IMG/VR virus record: IMGVR_UViG_2537561618_000016
Coordinates: 1-9,401 of that record
Reading direction: 5' to 3' (one strand)
Length of the DNA: 9,401 bases
Source of the DNA: a virus
Lineage: Duplodnaviria > Heunggongvirae > Uroviricota > Caudoviricetes
Shown in pieces: positions 693 through 9,401 of this stretch. Made by a program: the position numbers and the translations under genes. Every line of letters begins with the position of its first letter. The stretch's first letter is position 1. The notes beneath the pieces were generated by a model. It searched no databases, was not told where the DNA came from, and worked only from the letters and a program-made list of their open reading frames with translations.

Positions 693-1979
693 CTATATAC
701 GTTCCGGTGGGAGTACTGGGCACTGAAATCCCCACCGGTCCCAGTCGTGAGCCTCTGTATGACTGCCCCCTGACAAGTCTGATGACTTTATCACCGTCAG
801 CTTCTCCTGGTACGCAGCAATAATCAGCCCGCCAATGTCAGGGTCTCCCCATCTGTTGCGGACAGAGCTCGCCACGATTCTGTAAATAATATCTTCTGTG
901 GTTATATTTATTTTCACCCAGCCAGTCAGTCTGGATATGGGCCAGTAGCAGTAGCGGGTGTGATAAATGGGGCCGTTAATGCCGTAAAAAGTAAGGGATT
1001 TGGCTCTGTACCGCGGTTCTGTTGTCTCAGGGCGTGCATCAGTCCACCGGATGCTGAGCACCCCTTCAAACCGTGTGTCGGGTATGATGATGCCGTAAGG
1101 GCCAGCAACGGAATATTCACCTGGCAGCGCATTCCTTACCCAGGCCAGGAAATCACTCTTAGTGTCAAAACGGATAACATCTTCAGGCAGAAAAGCACAC
1201 CCAAAGCCGAATGCGCCGGGTATCGCCAGACGGCCTTTTGTCCGGTCGTAAATGTCGCTCTGTGCTTCCATCGTGGCCGCACTTTTCAGCCCCAGATTAT
1301 CCCGGGACTTCTGTTGTGCCTTTTCGCCTGCTGCTGCGATTTCAGACAGATGGTTAGCCGTTTTCAGAGTGCCGGTCAGCGCAGCATCAATGTCATTTTT
1401 GGCCTGCTCTGCTGCGCGGGCATAACCTGCGGCATCCTGTGCGCTCTGTCCGGCTGCGGCTGCATTTGCTCCTGTGCTTGTCACATCTTCCGCAGTGGCC
1501 TTTCTGTCCTCAGCTGTGACGGTTGCATCCTGTCGGGCTTTCTCCGCAAAACGTTGTGCATCATCACGGGCCGTTGCGGCTGCCGCCACATCCTGCGCCG
1601 TCTGCTGTGCGTTTCCGGCTGCGGCCCCGGCGCTCTGCTGCGCCTGCGCCACCATTTCCTCAAAGCGTTTGACGACATCCGGTTTCAGGTCGCCCTCATC
1701 AGGAGCAATCAGAAAGTCATTCAGCGTGCCGGGCTTTGAGTCCTCATATACAGCAATGTCGCCAACGTTGTACTCGTTGCGCCAGTCCTGTTTCAGATAC
1801 ACACCATATTTTCCAGTCCGCGCATGGAAACAGTATTCACCATCGTTTCCTGTCATCACATCAGCAACAGTGTTCATCACCACTTCCGGGGTGTTTACCC
1901 GGGATTTCAGAATAATATGGTATCCGGACATGGGGATACCTGCGCCATCAGTCAGCGCACCTGATATCACTACAGACAT
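693..1979 (-). CDS. Tail fibre protein (428 aa) with lambda Stf-like N-terminal anchor domain and Ala/Gln-rich shaft
   Basis: The N-terminus MSVVISGALTDGAG...VYEDSKPGTLNDFL closely follows the conserved N-terminus of lambda Stf and lambdoid prophage side tail fibres (MAVKISGVLKDG...TVYEDSQPGTLNDFL, from memory), followed by a low-complexity Ala-rich region. ATG at 1979 lies 23 nt after the upstream chaperone stop; stop TAG at 693-695. Confidence 0.8.
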   Translation of the reverse strand: MSVVISGALTDGAGIPMSGYHIILKSRVNTPEVVMNTVADVMTGNDGEYCFHARTGKYGVYLKQDWRNEYNVGDIAVYEDSKPGTLNDFLIAPDEGDLKPDVVKRFEEMVAQAQQSAGAAAGNAQQTAQDVAAAATARDDAQRFAEKARQDATVTAEDRKATAEDVTSTGANAAAAGQSAQDAAGYARAAEQAKNDIDAALTGTLKTANHLSEIAAAGEKAQQKSRDNLGLKSAATMEAQSDIYDRTKGRLAIPGAFGFGCAFLPEDVIRFDTKSDFLAWVRNALPGEYSVAGPYGIIIPDTRFEGVLSIRWTDARPETTEPRYRAKSLTFYGINGPIYHTRYCYWPISRLTGWVKINITTEDIIYRIVASSVRNRWGDPDIGGLIIAAYQEKLTVIKSSDLSGGSHTEAHDWDRWGFQCPVLPPERI

Positions 1980-2547: not shown

Positions 2548-3035
2548 TGTTAAATACTCGCTACGTTATACCAGGTGCCATTAATCAGTTTTTGCAGTGG
2601 TCGGTAATACACACCGTCAACGTTATCCGCTGAGTTACGGCCGGTATCCGATATCGCCATCCCTGACAGCCCGTGTCCCGAAGGTGCGCAAAATCTCCAC
2701 GAAACGGTGTTACTGCCGGGGCTGTAATACATTTCATGGCCATACCGTACATCCTGTACCCCCTCTGTTCGATATTTATAGCGGGCATCGAAGTTTCCGT
2801 AATTTAACGGAATTACCTGTCCGTTAACAGTGAACACTATGCTGTTATCCGGGTTTCTCTGGCTGAAAAAATGCCAGCCTGAATCATCACCAAGCTCTGC
2901 AACAACAGGCCTGGATGGATTACCCCACAAATAAAACGCTGCATTTTTCGTGGAGTTGTTGGCGCTGGATAACGTGAATTTTCTGGCAGTTCCGGCCTGA
3001 ATATTCTTAAAAGCAATAGCCACTCCATTCTGAAA

Positions 3036-3040
3036 GCGGA
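3036..3040. repeat. IS2 target site duplication, left copy (GCGGA)
   Basis: Identical 5-mer gcgga immediately flanks both IS2 ends (3036-3040 and 4372-4376); IS2 makes 5-bp duplications. Confidence 0.85.
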
Positions 3041-3081
3041 TAGACTGGCCCCCTGAATCTCCAGACAACCAGTATCACTTA
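3041..3081. repeat. IS2 left terminal inverted repeat (approx. 41 bp, imperfect)
   Basis: Aligned by eye against the reverse complement of 4331-4371; shared TCCAGACA and TATCACTTA blocks with one gap. Confidence 0.7.
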
Positions 3082-3131
3082 TTTAAGTGATAGTCTTAAT
3101 ACTAGTTTTTAGACTAGTCATTGGAGAACAG

Positions 3132-3497
3132 ATGATTGATGTCTTAGGGCCGGAGAAACGCAGACGGCGTACCACACAGGAAAAGATCGCAATTGTTCAG
3201 CAGAGCTTTGAACCGGGGATGACGGTCTCCCTCGTTGCCCGGCAACATGGTGTAGCAGCCAGCCAGTTATTTCTCTGGCGTAAGCAATACCAGGAAGGAA
3301 GTCTTACTGCTGTGGCCGCCGGAGAACAGGTTGTTCCTGCCTCTGAACTTGCTGCCGCCATGAAGCAGATTAAAGAACTCCAGCGCCTGCTCGGCAAGAA
3401 AACGATGGAAAATGAACTCCTCAAAGAAGCCGTTGAATATGGACGGGCAAAAAAGTGGATAGCGCACGCGCCCTTATTGCCCGGGGATGGGGAGTAA
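3132..3497 (+). CDS. insC: IS2 transposase OrfA (InsC), 121 aa
   Basis: [56 protein letters not shown]... matches IS2 InsC. GGAGA Shine-Dalgarno at 3123-3127 precedes ATG 3132; the ORF-track start at 3087 is an upstream extension. Confidence 0.9.
3449..3455 (+). other. IS2 programmed -1 ribosomal frameshift heptamer A AAA AAG (makes the InsCD fusion transposase)
   Basis: The heptamer is in the insC zero frame (gca aaa aag tgg); the insD frame is -1 and open from this point. Confidence 0.8.
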
Positions 3498-4360
3498 GCT
3501 TAGTCAGCCGTTGTCTCCGGGTGTCGCGTGCGCAGTTGCACGTCATTCTCAGACGAACCGATGACTGGATGGATGGCCGCCGCAGTCGTCACACTGATGA
3601 TACGGATGTGCTTCTCCGTATACACCATGTTATCGGAGAGCTGCCCACGTATGGTTATCGTCGGGTATGGGCGCTGCTTCGCAGACAGGCAGAACTTGAT
3701 GGTATGCCTGCGATCAATGCCAAACGTGTTTACCGGCTCATGCGCCAGAATGCGCTGTTGCTTGAGCGAAAACCTGCTGTACCGCCATCGAAACGGGCAC
3801 ATACAGGCAGAGTGGCCGTGAAAGAAAGCAATCAGCGATGGTGCTCTGACGGGTTCGAGTTCTGCTGTGATAACGGAGAGAGACTGCGTGTCACGTTCGC
3901 GCTGGACTGCTGTGATCGTGAGGCACTGCACTGGGCGGTGACTACCGGCGGCTTCAACAGTGAAACAGTACAGGACGTCATGCTGGGAGCGGTGGAACGC
4001 CGCTTCGGCAACGATCTTCCGTCGTCTCCAGTGGAGTGGCTGACGGATAATGGTTCATGCTACCGGGCTAATGAAACACGCCAGTTCGCCCGGATGTTGG
4101 GACTTGAACCGAAGAACACGGCGGTGCGGAGTCCGGAGAGTAACGGAATAGCAGAGAGCTTCGTGAAAACGATAAAGCGTGACTACATCAGTATCATGCC
4201 CAAACCAGACGGGTTAACGGCAGCAAAGAACCTTGCAGAGGCGTTCGAGCATTATAACGAATGGCATCCGCATAGTGCGCTGGGTTATCGCTCGCCACGG
4301 GAATATCTGCGGCAGCGGGCTTGTAATGGGTTAAGTGATAACAGATGTCTGGAAATATAG
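3455..4360 (+). CDS. insD: IS2 transposase OrfB (InsD), DDE catalytic domain, 301 aa; expressed as InsCD fusion by -1 frameshift
   Basis: The 301-aa ORF in the -1 frame relative to insC matches IS2 InsD (...[42 protein letters not shown]...). Confidence 0.9.
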
Positions 4361-4371
4361 GGGCAAATCCA
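4331..4371. repeat. IS2 right terminal inverted repeat (approx. 41 bp, imperfect)
   Basis: The reverse complement TGGATTTGCCCCTATATTTCCAGACATCTGTTATCACTTA aligns with the left end. Confidence 0.7.
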
Positions 4372-4376
4372 GCGGA
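4372..4376. repeat. IS2 target site duplication, right copy (GCGGA)
   Basis: See the left copy at 3036-3040. Confidence 0.85.
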
Positions 4377-5257
4377 ATACACGCTGACTATTAGCATAAA
4401 CATCCAGAATACCGTCTCCATTCTGTTTAAATCCGGTGTCATTATCACCAAGAACAATTGAATTCCCCCCCAGGGCGTTCTGAACGCCGATACCCAGCGC
4501 ACCATTGACCTGCGAACCACCGCCAACAGACACTTTATGCGACATGGATATTTCACCCGTCCGCAAATTAATGGTGAACGGGCGCAGGGGACCAATATCG
4601 CCATTTTCCCCCTGACCTTCACTGGTGGGAATAAGGTGCAGGCACTCTTCCGAACGACGAAAAATCAGGCCAAAAGCTTCGTTGAAAATCCTCAGCGCAT
4701 TAACACCACGGATTTTCAGCTCTCCGGTTATTTTATCGCCTTCCCGATGAACATAGCGTTGATCTGACTGCTCTTTACTGTAAACCTGAAGATTATCCCG
4801 TGCCGTCCCTTTATTCTGAAGGTCTGACAGATTGTTCTTCTGCCGCAGGAATATCCTTTTCGGATCCTCAAGAAGATTTACCCAGCCCGCACTGTCGGAG
4901 CCTTCAGGATCGGTCAGGTTATCGTCCGTGGTATTCAGCCAGACCGCTGTTGTTGCGACTCCGGCGAGAATGGCTCCTTTTGCATATCCACCAATGGCCC
5001 CCGCAAAACCGGCATTATACGTGTACAAACCGCCAGCCTGGGCGAACCGTATTGCTGCGGTAATATCGTACATCAGACCGTTAAAATCCTTGCCGTGTGG
5101 CGGTATACCTCCCGCTGAGACCGCTGTCATGGTCACCGGAGGAAAACCTGAATCATACGCAGCATTACCGCTCTCTCTGGTCTGCTGTGTCGCCTTGTCC
5201 GGGATACGGTTTTTATCTCCGGTACTCGCAAAGGGGACCGCCAGCTGGCGGGGTTTA

Positions 5258-5863
5258 TCACTGGCCTTCATTACGGGACTCCTTTAAAACTACTGAAACA
5301 TAAACACCCGGCGGGGATGGCAGTGCACCCGACGACTGGATAATCGCCAGTTCTGCCAACGAGAGCGCGGACTCAAAGACGTAACTCATCCTCAGCCCGC
5401 CATTATTCAGAACATAAGCCCGGCGTTTTTTTCCGAACATAAATCTCAGCATCAGGTTAATATCCGGAACGGAACAGTCAGTAATGTTCGACATGGCTTT
5501 CATCAGTATCAGCCGCCAGTATACAGCATCAGACAGGTCAACAGTCCGGGTATCCGATTTTCCGTTGTAAAACGGTGCCTGATTAAACGGACAGGGATCA
5601 TCCATTACCGGGGTGTCCATCCTGGACTCGCTGAAGCCCAGGTAATTAAAATCGTCCTTTACCGTCAGCCAGCAACTGACACCCACAATCTTTCCCCAGA
5701 CATCAAGACCATACTTTTCTGCGGTATCGATGTTCCAGATAAGACCATAAAAATCACTGATAAAACTGTCGGGGGAAAGCGCTGCGTTAAAGCTGTTAAT
5801 GAGGGCATTGAGTCGGGGGCTGGCAGCATACTGCGCAAGCACAGTGGCAGCCACATTCTGCAC
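5258..5863 (-). CDS. Phage tail/baseplate-associated protein in the gpI (P2) / gp48 (Mu) / YmfQ (e14) position, 201 aa
   Basis: Intact ORF with GTG start at 5863 preceded by a GGAGG Shine-Dalgarno (5871-5875), 1 nt after the upstream stop. Its 3' end overlaps the fibre start by 14 nt. It sits between a J-like gene and the tail fibre, as in the P2 J-I-H-G and Mu gp47-gp48-S-U order. The family assignment is by synteny and size, not a confident sequence match. Confidence 0.6.
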
Positions 5864-5864
5864 G

Positions 5865-6566
5865 TTATGCCTCCTGGAGTTTCACACTGATATCCGACAC
5901 ATCCAGAACCGGAATCTCATCTATCCCGAAAGTGACAGCCGTTGTCCATGACGAACCATCACGGCTCACAGTAAGGCCCAGAATATCAATATGTTCCGGA
6001 TCGGTTTTGTAAATGCCGGCATAGTAGCGCCCGGCAGAGACAACAGAGGCAACTCTTGCCCGCAGACCACCATCTGTACCATTAAATGCGTCCAGCACGG
6101 ATTGCTGTACCTGTCGGGTAATATCTGAAGGCAGGTAGTCACTTTTTTTCAGCGTCACACTGACATGCAGACTGACGGGTTTGAGTGTCTGCCAGCTGAT
6201 CACGTATTCAGGATACGGCGGATCGTACTCCTTATCTGCAACAGTGAACGTTGTGTTGCCATTCATATCAATACCCGGCGGAGCCTTACGCCAGATGGCC
6301 GCCGCGATATCTGCCGGGCTGCCGCCGTACACGCCAACATAAAGCGAACCGGGTGTTAATGGATACTGACTGACTCCGGCTTTTTGTTCTGTTTTTTTCG
6401 GATTATGGGTGACGTAAACATCCACCACGTTTTCTACCGTGGAGAGTATTTCACCCCGGATGGCTTCCAGAATATTCCGGGCATTACGGGCAACTGAATT
6501 ACGTCGGCGGTTTTCAAAGTCCGCACGGGTTTCCTCATCGCTGCCCGGCACACCGGCACGGGCGTT
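5865..6566 (-). pseudogene. Baseplate assembly protein J-like (P2 gpJ / Mu gp47 position), 5'-truncated at the IS600-like element
   Basis: The reading frame is open from the IS boundary (6566) to the stop at 5865-5867 (233 codons), with no credible start or Shine-Dalgarno. It is immediately upstream of the gpI-like gene. The J-family assignment is by synteny only. Confidence 0.5.
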
Positions 6567-6630
6567 TGAGGTAGCCTGAGTTTAACGGACACTCCTTCCT
6601 GAAATAGAATGGCATCAGAAGGAGCTAATA

Positions 6631-6918
6631 ATGAGCAGAAAAACCCAACGTTACTCTAAAGAGTTCAAAGCCGAAGCTGTCAGAACGGTTCTTGAAAATC
6701 AACTTTCGATCAGTGAAGGCGCTTCCCGATTATCTCTTCCTGAAGGCACTTTAGGACAATGGGTTACCGCCGCCAGAAAAGGGCTCGGTACTCCTGGTTC
6801 CCGCACGGTGGCTGAACTGGAATCTGAAATTCTGCAACTGCGTAAGGCGTTAAATGAAGCTCGCCTTGAGCGAGATATATTAAAAAAGCAACAGCGTATT
6901 TTGCACAGGAGTCACTGA
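6631..6918 (+). CDS. IS600-like transposase OrfA (HTH DNA-binding), 95 aa as sequenced
   Basis: MSRKTQRYSKEFKAEAVRTVLENQLSISEGASRLSLPEGTLGQWV...LERDILKK is an IS3-family OrfA. The C-terminal tail KQQRILHRSH looks aberrant; the -1 frame gives the expected ATAYFAQESLKNTR ending. Confidence 0.85.
   Translation: MSRKTQRYSKEFKAEAVRTVLENQLSISEGASRLSLPEGTLGQWVTAARKGLGTPGSRTVAELESEILQLRKALNEARLERDILKKQQRILHRSH
6882..6888 (+). other. A AAA AAG slippery heptamer of IS600-like orfA (A6 tract); orfB frame opens here but is +1, not -1, to orfA
   Basis: Codons tta aaa aag are in the orfA frame; the orfB frame (KSNSVFCTGVTEKYALIEQWRQQFPIEVMCQVF...) is open from 6884. Confidence 0.6.
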
Positions 6919-6964
6919 AAAATACGCGTTAATCGAACAATGGCGACAACAATTTCCCATTGAA

Positions 6965-7786
6965 GTGATGTGTCAGGTATTTGGTGTATCCAGGAGCGGT
7001 TATTACAACTGGGTACAGCATGAACCCTCAGACAGAAAACAAAGTGATGAGCGGCTAAAACTGGAGATTAAGGTGGCACATATCCGCACTCGCGAAACAT
7101 ATGGAACCCGGCGGCTCCAGACGGAGCTGGCAGAGAATGGCATCATCGTTGGTCGTGACCGACTGGCACGTCTTCGTAAGGAGCTGAGGCTACGCTGTAA
7201 GCAGAAACGCAAGTTCAGAGCGACTACGAACCCGAACCACAATCTGCCAGTTGCGCCAAATCTGCTGAACCAGACGTTCGCTCCTACAGCACCAAATCAA
7301 GTCTGGGTGGCGGACCTGACGTATGTTGCCACACAGGAAGGATGGTTGTACCTCGCTGGCATCAAAGATGTTTATACGTGCGAAATTGTCGGCTACGCCA
7401 TGGGAGAGCGCATGACAAAAGAGCTGACAGGTAAAGCCCTGTTTATGGCGCTCAGGAGCCAGCGCCCACCTGCCGGGCTAATCCACCACTCTGATCGAGG
7501 TTCACAGTACTGCGCATACGATTACCGGGTCATACAGGAGCAGTTTGGTCTGAAAACATCAATGTCGCGTAAAGGTAACTGTTACGACAACGCTCCGATG
7601 GAAAGCTTCTGGGGAACGCTGAAAAATGAGAGCCTGAGCCACTATCGTTTTAATAACCGGGATGAAGCCATCTCAGTAATACGGGAATACATTGAGATTT
7701 TCTACAATCGTCAGCGTCGTCACTCTCGTCTGGGGAATATCTCCCCGGCAGCCTTCAGGGAAAAACATCATCAGATGGCTGCTTAA
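6965..7786 (+). CDS. IS600-like transposase OrfB (DDE integrase-type catalytic domain), 273 aa from the first in-frame start; frame open from 6884
   Basis: IS3-family OrfB hallmarks: SRSGYYNW, WVADLTY, HSDRGSQY, NAPMESFWGTLK, YNRQRRHS. Confidence 0.85.
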   Translation: MMCQVFGVSRSGYYNWVQHEPSDRKQSDERLKLEIKVAHIRTRETYGTRRLQTELAENGIIVGRDRLARLRKELRLRCKQKRKFRATTNPNHNLPVAPNLLNQTFAPTAPNQVWVADLTYVATQEGWLYLAGIKDVYTCEIVGYAMGERMTKELTGKALFMALRSQRPPAGLIHHSDRGSQYCAYDYRVIQEQFGLKTSMSRKGNCYDNAPMESFWGTLKNESLSHYRFNNRDEAISVIREYIEIFYNRQRRHSRLGNISPAAFREKHHQMAA

Positions 7787-7829
7787 AAAAAGAACAAATG
7801 GTAGTGTCCGCTATTGCCAGTACACCTCA

Positions 7830-8926
7830 TTTTACAGCCCCGTCCGGGCTGTATGTTTTCACCAGCTTATCCAGTGATCGTTTTGAAAATGGCTGCATTG
7901 GATCACGTGGCTGCAAAAATACATAATCCCTGTTGCACTCAGGAACTGAATCACGCCAGGCTTTCTGCTCGTCGATAATCCGCCGGATCTCAGGCGTTAT
8001 CGGCAGGCGGAAAGCCTTTTGTGTTTTCATAGCCCCTCGCATGCCGATAACCCCTTCCGGATAAACAATTTCACCAGCCTCCTCGTAAACGTAGTCCCAG
8101 CGCAGGTTATGGACATTAATCGGACGAACACCAGTGATGATCATGAAGCGAACAGCATTCTTCTGGTGTACAGAGGTGCAGGCAGCAACATTGAGCCAGA
8201 GTCGGGCGATTGATTCAATATCGGTAAAAAGCCGTGTGGGGGTAGGTTTCTGTACGCGGGAGGAAACATAATCATCTGGCAGACTGGCGGCAACATTGCG
8301 GCCGTTGCAAAGAGTAGGTGCGCAGAACTTCCAGAACCGACGGAGCTCGGCAAACAACTCCAGGGCGTTATTGTTCGAGCGAGTGGCGATCCACTCGTCC
8401 AGCACTTCCACCAGCCGATTGTATGTTACGTCGCTGAACACCTCACGCTCGCCGAACGTTGCTTTAATCCGGTCGATACGCACCCCGTAGGTTGTGAAAC
8501 TGTCCGGGCTCAGCTTCTGCCGGGCTACTTTGGCTTTGGGTCATCCCGGTACATTTCCAGCGCTGCATGTACGGACTCTGCCCGCAGTCCACCGTCAGCC
8601 ATACCTAGTGCTTTTTCGCGCGCCAGCTGGATAACGAGCTCCGGCCACTCGCCGAGCTTTTTACCTTTGAGGCCCATCTTTTTTGGAAACTCGGCGTAAA
8701 ATGTAACCTTACCGGCTTTGCTGAAATCGATACGGAGATAGTTCTCTTTTTCGTATTTGGAACGGCGAGCCACGCCGGAAGCAGCGAGGATGATTTTGGC
8801 GGCAGCAACACAGATTTTCATGTGTGCGCTGGTATAGGGGGGTTTACAGGCGTCCCATTTTTCAGATGCGGCTAAAACATCGTCATTATTGGGGCTATCC
8901 GGATTATGTGTTACAGTGCGCGGCAT
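7830..8926 (-). pseudogene. Phage integrase (tyrosine recombinase, P4-type with arm-binding N-terminal domain), frameshifted near 8529-8537 and 3'-truncated by the IS600-like element
   Basis: ATG at 8926 with AAGGA Shine-Dalgarno. The N-terminal segment (...KVTFYAEFPKKMGLKGKKLGEWPELVIQLAREKA...) resembles the P4-type arm-binding domain and stops at 8525. The downstream segment continues in the -1 frame from 8540 and carries box I (ITGVRPINVHNLRWDYV) and the lysine hairpin (MKTQKAFRLPITPEI). The frame runs into the IS terminus at 7829, and the catalytic H-x-x-R and Tyr regions are absent. Confidence 0.75.
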
Positions 8927-9131
8927 TCTCAATCCTTATCTGCGTAGGCGCAGAAAACAAGCTCACACATACAAGTCTTTTCTACGGGACAAAATGCAAT
9001 GTGTTGCGGTTTTGTGTTGCTGGACTGAGTTTATCAAGGTTAAATACACTGGATCAACATACAGTAAGTTAATGACAGTAAAGCATACAAACTCGATACA
9101 ACTTACTGATTTTAAAATGATTTAACGGTAA

Positions 9132-9401
<270 letters not shown>

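Follow-up and report, generated by a model that had tools for sequence, protein, structure and literature searches.

An IS600 copy one adenine short at its frameshift run, in a decayed Shigella flexneri prophage: a loss that may be an assembly error

The window, a stretch of 9,401 nucleotides, harbors an ordinary copy of IS600, an insertion sequence of the IS3 group within the IS3 family, and the copy lies at a deletion junction in a decayed Shigella flexneri prophage. By descent the element is IS600, and as written it is a defective copy whose failure comes down to a single base, since the adenine run at its frameshift site has six residues (A6) instead of the canonical seven (A7). This missing base may be an assembly error. 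We give a probability of about 0.56 to the reading that the draft assembly behind the window under-called an A7 run by one residue, in which case the true element would have the normal -1 arrangement of its two genes. Direct comparison establishes what the element is, how the canonical one is built, that one A is missing at the run, and which assemblies of the locus have A6 or A7.

The element and its ends are as follows, all positions here and below being those of the window.

6567-7829, plus strand: IS600 copy (IS3 family), 1263 bp as written, against a canonical length of 1264 bp.
6567-6593, plus strand: left terminal inverted repeat, which starts with TG; the repeat pair is 27 nt long, imperfect and 70% complementary.
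7803-7829, plus strand: right terminal inverted repeat, which ends with CA; the 27-nt partner of 6567-6593.

By megablast, the element is 99.3-99.4% identical, over 1263/1264 bp, to the annotated IS600 copies of Shigella plasmids and E. coli. Matches are found in 4142 E. coli records and 890 plasmids, and the top ones are labeled either "IS600 ORF1/ORF2" or "IS3-like element IS600 family transposase". With 99.4% identity over the full length, a chance match is of no concern. The outermost 40 nt at both ends are identical to those of canonical copies, and the terminal inverted repeats are imperfect with TG...CA ends, as membership of IS600 requires. The preliminary description of this DNA had given the element 1263 bp, one base under the 1264 bp of IS600, and comparison with canonical copies confirms both the boundaries and the length.

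The coding content is likewise that of IS600, with a helix-turn-helix in orfA and a DDE (rve) catalytic domain in orfB. The orfA product contains the Pfam domain HTH_Tnp_1 (E = 1.3e-20), and the orfB product contains rve (E = 3.2e-26), rve_2, rve_3 and HTH_21. Measured against the E. coli reference haplotype, five substitutions are particular to the locus, namely 6914 G>A, 6966 C>T, 7300 G>A, 7339 G>A and 7766 T>C. Two of them are silent and the other three cause A96T, A113V and Y380H in the OrfAB frame; the only differences between the OrfAB of the window and the canonical protein are A96T, A113V, S202P and Y380H.

Canonical copies, such as that of pCP301 (annotated as "IS600 ORF1/ORF2") and an E. 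coli chromosomal copy carrying the label "programmed frameshift", are 1264 bp long and have A7. When a canonical copy is translated, OrfA has 100 aa, and a -1 slip on A_AAA_AAA after codon 86 leads to an OrfAB of 385 aa. Our translation is concordant with Sharma et al. 2014 (PMC4066793), whose supplement places IS600 in the cluster A_AAA_AAA_1, marked as "true", and lists 86, 385 and 100 for it. In its main text, the same paper treats the frameshifting of this cluster as a proven case, stimulated by a stem-loop, and describes A7 runs as liable to indel mutation. A main-text literature search for IS600 together with frameshifting returned no dedicated study, the relevant data being held in that supplement. 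In the canonical element, OrfA (100 aa) acts as a DNA-binding regulator, and the transposase OrfAB (385 aa) results from -1 ribosomal frameshifting on A_AAA_AAA after codon 86, aided by the stem-loop 6 nt downstream.

The corresponding region of the window is composed of the following features.

6631-6918, plus strand: orfA as written, 95 aa, of which residues 1-86 are canonical and are followed by the aberrant tail QQRILHRSH.
6882-6887, plus strand: A6 run; canonical IS600 has A7 here, in the slippery motif A_AAA_AAA (run lengths were counted in the window and in other copies).
6882-6888, plus strand: A_AAA_AAG heptamer, in the orfA frame, which arises from the missing A.
6884-7786, plus strand: orfB frame (DDE/rve transposase domain), +1 relative to orfA as written, open throughout, with its stop at 7784-7786.
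6888-6932, plus strand: -1-frame continuation, ATAYFAQESLKNTR and then TAA, which is the canonical OrfA C-terminus, identical to that of the 100-aa OrfA.
6894-6927, plus strand: predicted stem-loop, the likely stimulator of frameshifting, 5-6 nt 3' of the slippery run, with 12-nt arms that are 92% complementary.
7785-7791, plus strand: second A7 run of the element, at and just after the orfB stop; it serves as an internal control and is intact in the window.

The orfA-frame codons at the run are TTA AAA AAG, and the 0 frame continues as KKQQRILHRSH to a TGA stop at 6916-6918. The -1 frame reads KKATAYFAQESLKNTR and ends with a TAA stop at 6930-6932. In conceptual translation, a -1 slip on the A_AAA_AAG of the window yields the canonical 100-aa OrfA and no fusion protein. 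Where IS600 has orfB in the -1 frame and A_AAA_AAA in the overlap, the window has A6, an orfB in the +1 frame and an OrfA of 95 aa. The segment 6876-6965 folds with an energy of -20.6 kcal/mol (z = -3.96), the stem being formed by pairing of 6894-6905 with 6916-6927. The spacer is 5 nt in the window and 6 nt in canonical copies, and the window copy falls within the rule of Sharma et al. 2014, by which the stem-loop starts 4-10 nt after the motif.

The preliminary description had already located A_AAA_AAG at 6882-6888 in the orfA frame, the early stop of the -1 frame and the +1 position of orfB, and its coordinates are all correct. It had also recognized KKATAYFAQESLKNTR as the OrfA terminus of the family, which is indeed how the reference 100-aa OrfA ends, and had concluded that the reference has A7 and that one A is gone from this copy. 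Our own counts and translation, along with Sharma et al. 2014, agree that the copy is exactly one A short. A reference with A6 and the same frame relationship was looked for, and the reference IS600 instead has A7 with orfB in the -1 frame. As for the heptamer itself, which the description took as the frameshift site of such elements, the A-rich -1 site stands but its form is to be amended, because the canonical motif is A_AAA_AAA and the A_AAA_AAG of the window is a by-product of the lost A.

On either side, the element is bordered by a truncated prophage gene.

5865-6551, minus strand: left flank, a fragment of a phage baseplate wedge gene (PHROG 6, E = 2.4e-22, profile positions 231-407 of 548).
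7827-8483, minus strand: right flank, an integrase fragment whose frame runs into the end of the IS (Pfam Phage_integrase, positions 14-117 of 172; PHROG 1).

No 3-bp target-site duplication is present, as GTT (6564-6566) is found on the left and TTT (7830-7832) on the right, whereas matching 3-bp flanks surround the 7 other copies that were checked. The absence is explained by the position of the element between two truncated genes, as at a deletion or recombination junction, and the IS600 copy marks such an IS-associated junction in the decayed prophage. The prophage remnant adjoins a ferredoxin gene and acpS-pdxJ-recO. It also contains a complete IS2 copy (3041-4371, 1331 bp). A 5-bp target duplication, GCGGA, borders it without mismatch at 3036-3040 and 4372-4376, and its insertion leaves a phage tail-fibre gene in two pieces, the ORFs 4285-5271 and 2550-3068; the orfB of IS2 is in its normal -1 frame. 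The tail-fibre gene at 693-1979 (minus strand) includes a 147-bp in-frame segment, at about 1428-1574 in an Ala-rich region, which is absent from three sister assemblies and may reflect either real variation in repeat number or repeats that were collapsed when those three were assembled.

The window is 100% identical to a Shigella flexneri draft contig, AFHC01000047.1 (GCA_000213475.2). Its exact 95-aa OrfA is found in two Shigella flexneri drafts, of strains K-218 and 4343-70 by database name, one of which is AFHC01. Among the other exact-protein look-ups, the 273-aa OrfB gave no record, the 201-aa wedge and 428-aa tail-fibre proteins gave the source contig only, and the 157-aa protein had no complete genome among its matches. 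A look-up of the ATG-start OrfB brought in further genomes that carry the SNPs of the locus with A7.

The most informative of the same-locus copies is that of the complete genome CP026776.1. Aligned with window positions 6729-9286, it gives 2559 columns with 0 mismatches and one gap, which is an extra A that makes the run A7. This copy has the same right flank, with its integrase-fragment junction, and the same private SNPs as the window, and differs from it by A7. Comparison with other copies was one of the checks proposed in the preliminary description, and this is its outcome. A second complete genome, LM651928.1, likewise has the integrase-fragment right junction and the copy-specific SNPs found in the window, with A7 where the window has A6; here, as in the drafts AGRC01 and UDSS01, the copy-specific 6914A and 6966T occur together with A7. 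The linkage of A6 to 6914A/6966T in three assemblies was at one stage taken as proof that A6 is real, and was overturned by these complete genomes and other drafts, in which those SNPs accompany A7.

At this locus, A6 is confined to three drafts with neighboring accessions, AFGV01 (GCA_000213675.2), AFHB01 (GCA_000213455.2) and AFHC01, and AFHA, a fourth draft of the accession series, has A7 at the slippery run. Two haplotype backgrounds are represented among the three A6 drafts. One, that of CP026776.1, is shared by the window and AFGV, whose strains are close relatives, one flank SNP apart; AFHB matches LM651928.1, in an agreement that includes a 4-bp deletion at 6365-6368 and the alleles 8461A, 8764A and 6808C. 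Each A6 background therefore has an A7 counterpart in a complete genome. Since A6 is found on two backgrounds, a real origin would require two independent deletions, or one deletion and one error.

Other anomalies are seen in copies at this locus. The AFGV01 copy has lost 16 bp in orfB (window 7328-7352) and the AFHB01 copy 7 bp in orfA (window 6769-6775), each of which could be further decay or an assembly error. In CP026776.1, the IS600 copy is interrupted to the left of the equivalent of window position 6729 (locus positions 1-1260) by other sequence with genes for an HTH_Tnp_1 protein (100 aa) and an rve protein (217 aa), probably another IS3-family element. Several short-read drafts (4 loci) have the right half of the IS600 copy and its integrase flank joined to unrelated left flanks, which include a traI/PIN-toxin plasmid-like region and metG, and the IS interiors are SNP mosaics; these joins come either from chimeric assembly across the repeat or from genuine IS600-mediated rearrangement.

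The drafts in question are rich in indels. Over the 8.9 kb that four drafts have in common, 25 indel events were counted next to 33 SNP columns, and the indels are mostly single-base changes private to one assembly, most of these being in base runs. Six changes fall in runs of 6-7 bases and all are shortenings: T7 to T6 at 539, 5426, 6143 and 6392, A6 to A5 at 2457, and T6 to T5 at 2441. The AFHB draft has around 12 private indels. Relative to its three sister drafts, the window itself has private single-base indels at 2441 (T5 against T6) and 805 (CC against CCC), both likely to be assembly errors in its source; the former splits a tail-fibre assembly gene into 40 + 116 aa, compared with 181 aa in the other assemblies. 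A literature search for the sequencing platform used for strains K-218 and 4343-70 returned nothing useful.

How the missing base is judged depends on setting these error rates against the chance of a true loss. Roughly, an undercall is expected at about 0.1-0.2 per 7-base run per draft, and a true deletion, in a copy that otherwise equals its complete-genome counterpart, at about 1% or a few percent. These rates put the probability of an artefact at about 55-60%, against about 40% for a real deletion, so that error is somewhat more likely. This preference is founded on the A7 of the CP026776.1 copy, on the confinement of A6 to three error-prone drafts and on its occurrence on two backgrounds. 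The shortened base runs of these drafts, the prevalence of A7 among IS600 copies and the joint shortening of both A7 runs in other public assemblies point the same way. Other observations point the opposite way. Three assemblies agree on A6, and three independent miscalls would have a probability of only about 0.1-1% at an error rate of 0.1-0.2. The window and AFGV strains could share one real deletion, with AFHB alone in error. The control A7 run at 7785-7791 is also correct in AFHC, AFGV and AFHB, and AFHA reads A7 at the slippery run.

The competing account, tentative and the less probable of the two, is that A6 is real, and that strand slippage removed one A from A7 in the lineage of the strain to leave a non-autonomous copy. 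It would be in keeping with the company of A6 and copy-specific SNPs in AFHC, AFGV and AFHB, with their intact control runs, and with the A7 runs being indel-prone according to Sharma et al. 2014 (PMC4066793). The absence of a target-site duplication and the position at a deletion junction imply an old copy, and the losses of 16 bp and 7 bp in the sister drafts would fit a dead, drifting one, although these extra deletions may themselves be assembly errors. A6 alleles are also found elsewhere, including in the finished genomes RM12581 and RM13514, at two loci. Weighing against a real loss are the closest complete genome, CP026776.1, which is otherwise identical and has A7; the two haplotype backgrounds, both with A7 counterparts, which call for at least two independent events, or one event and one error; and the restriction of A6 at this locus to one accession series of error-prone drafts. 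Undercalling of an A7 run is consequently preferred. The earlier suggestion, of a copy that is probably unable to produce the fusion transposase, holds only if A6 is real, and the evidence favors the error alternative that the preliminary description had itself flagged.

If the loss were real, the consequences would be as follows. The 0 frame would produce a 95-aa OrfA with its HTH domain intact and its tail altered. With the stem-loop 5 nt after A_AAA_AAG, a -1 slip would produce the wild-type 100-aa OrfA in place of transposase, and OrfAB would be out of reach of -1 frameshifting, requiring instead a -2 or +1 event. The intact ends would allow mobility only through the transposase of other IS600 copies. 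For IS911, a review gives a transposase that works about 200-fold better in cis, and by this cis preference the movement of an A6 copy by the transposase of other copies would be inefficient. Regain of one A would restore the normal IS600 design.

In the databases, A7 is overwhelmingly the norm. The 100-aa OrfA is found on at least 1000 contigs by exact-protein look-up, compared with 184 contigs for the A6-type 95-aa OrfA on the canonical background and 2 contigs for the exact 95-aa OrfA of the window. With a 76-nt probe, among E. coli records with a full-length match, exact A6 is present in 6 of 1333 and exact A8 in 3 of 1333. For plasmids, an A6 copy is present in 28 of the 262 records that match over the full length, and many of the 28 come from consecutive accession numbers; the older reference plasmids pWR100 and pCP301 have no A6 copy. 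These counts use full-length 100% rows only, because the identity bands of short-query BLAST are confounded by partial matches.

It is very improbable that A6 is both real and compatible with autonomy, with OrfAB made by a -2 or +1 slip on A_AAA_AAG aided by the stem-loop, or by transcriptional slippage; if true, this would be a natural IS3-family element with a non-standard direction of frameshifting. A -2 slip from AAG would, in conceptual translation, lead to a protein of 385 aa whose junction, LKKSNS, is the canonical one, the predicted stem-loop is intact in the window, and RefSeq attaches a "programmed frameshift" label to A6 copies, but the label is automated. In some genomes, several A6 copies occupy separate sites and are flanked by target duplications. 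Against this, A6 is rare among the E. coli records counted above; the SNP 873T, common to two A6 copies of RM12581, is a common STEC allele that also occurs with A7 in the same genome; and in the sampled genomes with at least three A6 copies (n = 2), the control run is short in 3 of 3 and 1 of 4 copies, which points to assembly error. In the literature search, no experiment on +1 or -2 frameshifting in IS600 came up.

There is no support for an active A6 lineage. A self-copying A6 subfamily was considered for the two E. coli O145:H28 RM12581 copies, which share 873T and have target duplications, and was rejected as 873T with A7 is a common STEC haplotype present in that genome. Genomes with multiple A6 copies were also considered as an active lineage, and are treated as artefacts from the shortened control runs of GCA_949812105.1 and GCA_974490245.1. 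In the former, both A7 runs of IS600 read A6 in all three sampled copies, giving elements of 1262 bp, and in the latter the second A7 run is also shortened in one of the four sampled A6 copies; joint shortening of both runs is the signature of a systematic homopolymer undercalling or assembly artefact. The annotation of A6 copies is a separate matter. In NZ_CP007136.1 (2373127-2374989), RefSeq gives a 1263-bp A6 IS600 a two-piece CDS with "programmed frameshift", even though a -1 slip cannot yield the fusion, and the automated label does not distinguish A6 from A7 copies.

The biological import of the finding is small, as IS600, the -1 frameshift on A_AAA_AAA and IS decay in Shigella are all already known, and, whichever length the run has, the element is a familiar one whose behavior or decay follows a familiar course. 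Its interest lies more in how such elements are counted. Whether an IS3-family copy is considered active turns on a single base in its slippery run, which is also where sequencing errors are concentrated. Counts of intact IS600 taken from draft or long-read-only assemblies are for this reason biased.

Compared with known systems, the window copy shares with the "IS600 ORF1/ORF2" of pCP301 and with the IS600 family transposase elements of E. coli its ends, its orfA/orfB content and its downstream stem-loop. Canonical IS600 has A7, orfB in the -1 frame and a 3-bp target duplication, whereas the window copy has A6, orfB in the +1 frame and no duplication. IS911, IS3 and IS150 are likewise organized around an OrfA regulator and an OrfAB transposase whose synthesis takes a -1 slip at an A-rich heptamer, helped by RNA structure downstream, but their heptamers are A_AAA_AAG or A_AAA_G, in contrast to the A_AAA_AAA of canonical IS600. 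The IS911-like A_AAA_AAG of the window is due only to the missing A, and a -1 slip on it leads to the terminus of OrfA and not to OrfB.
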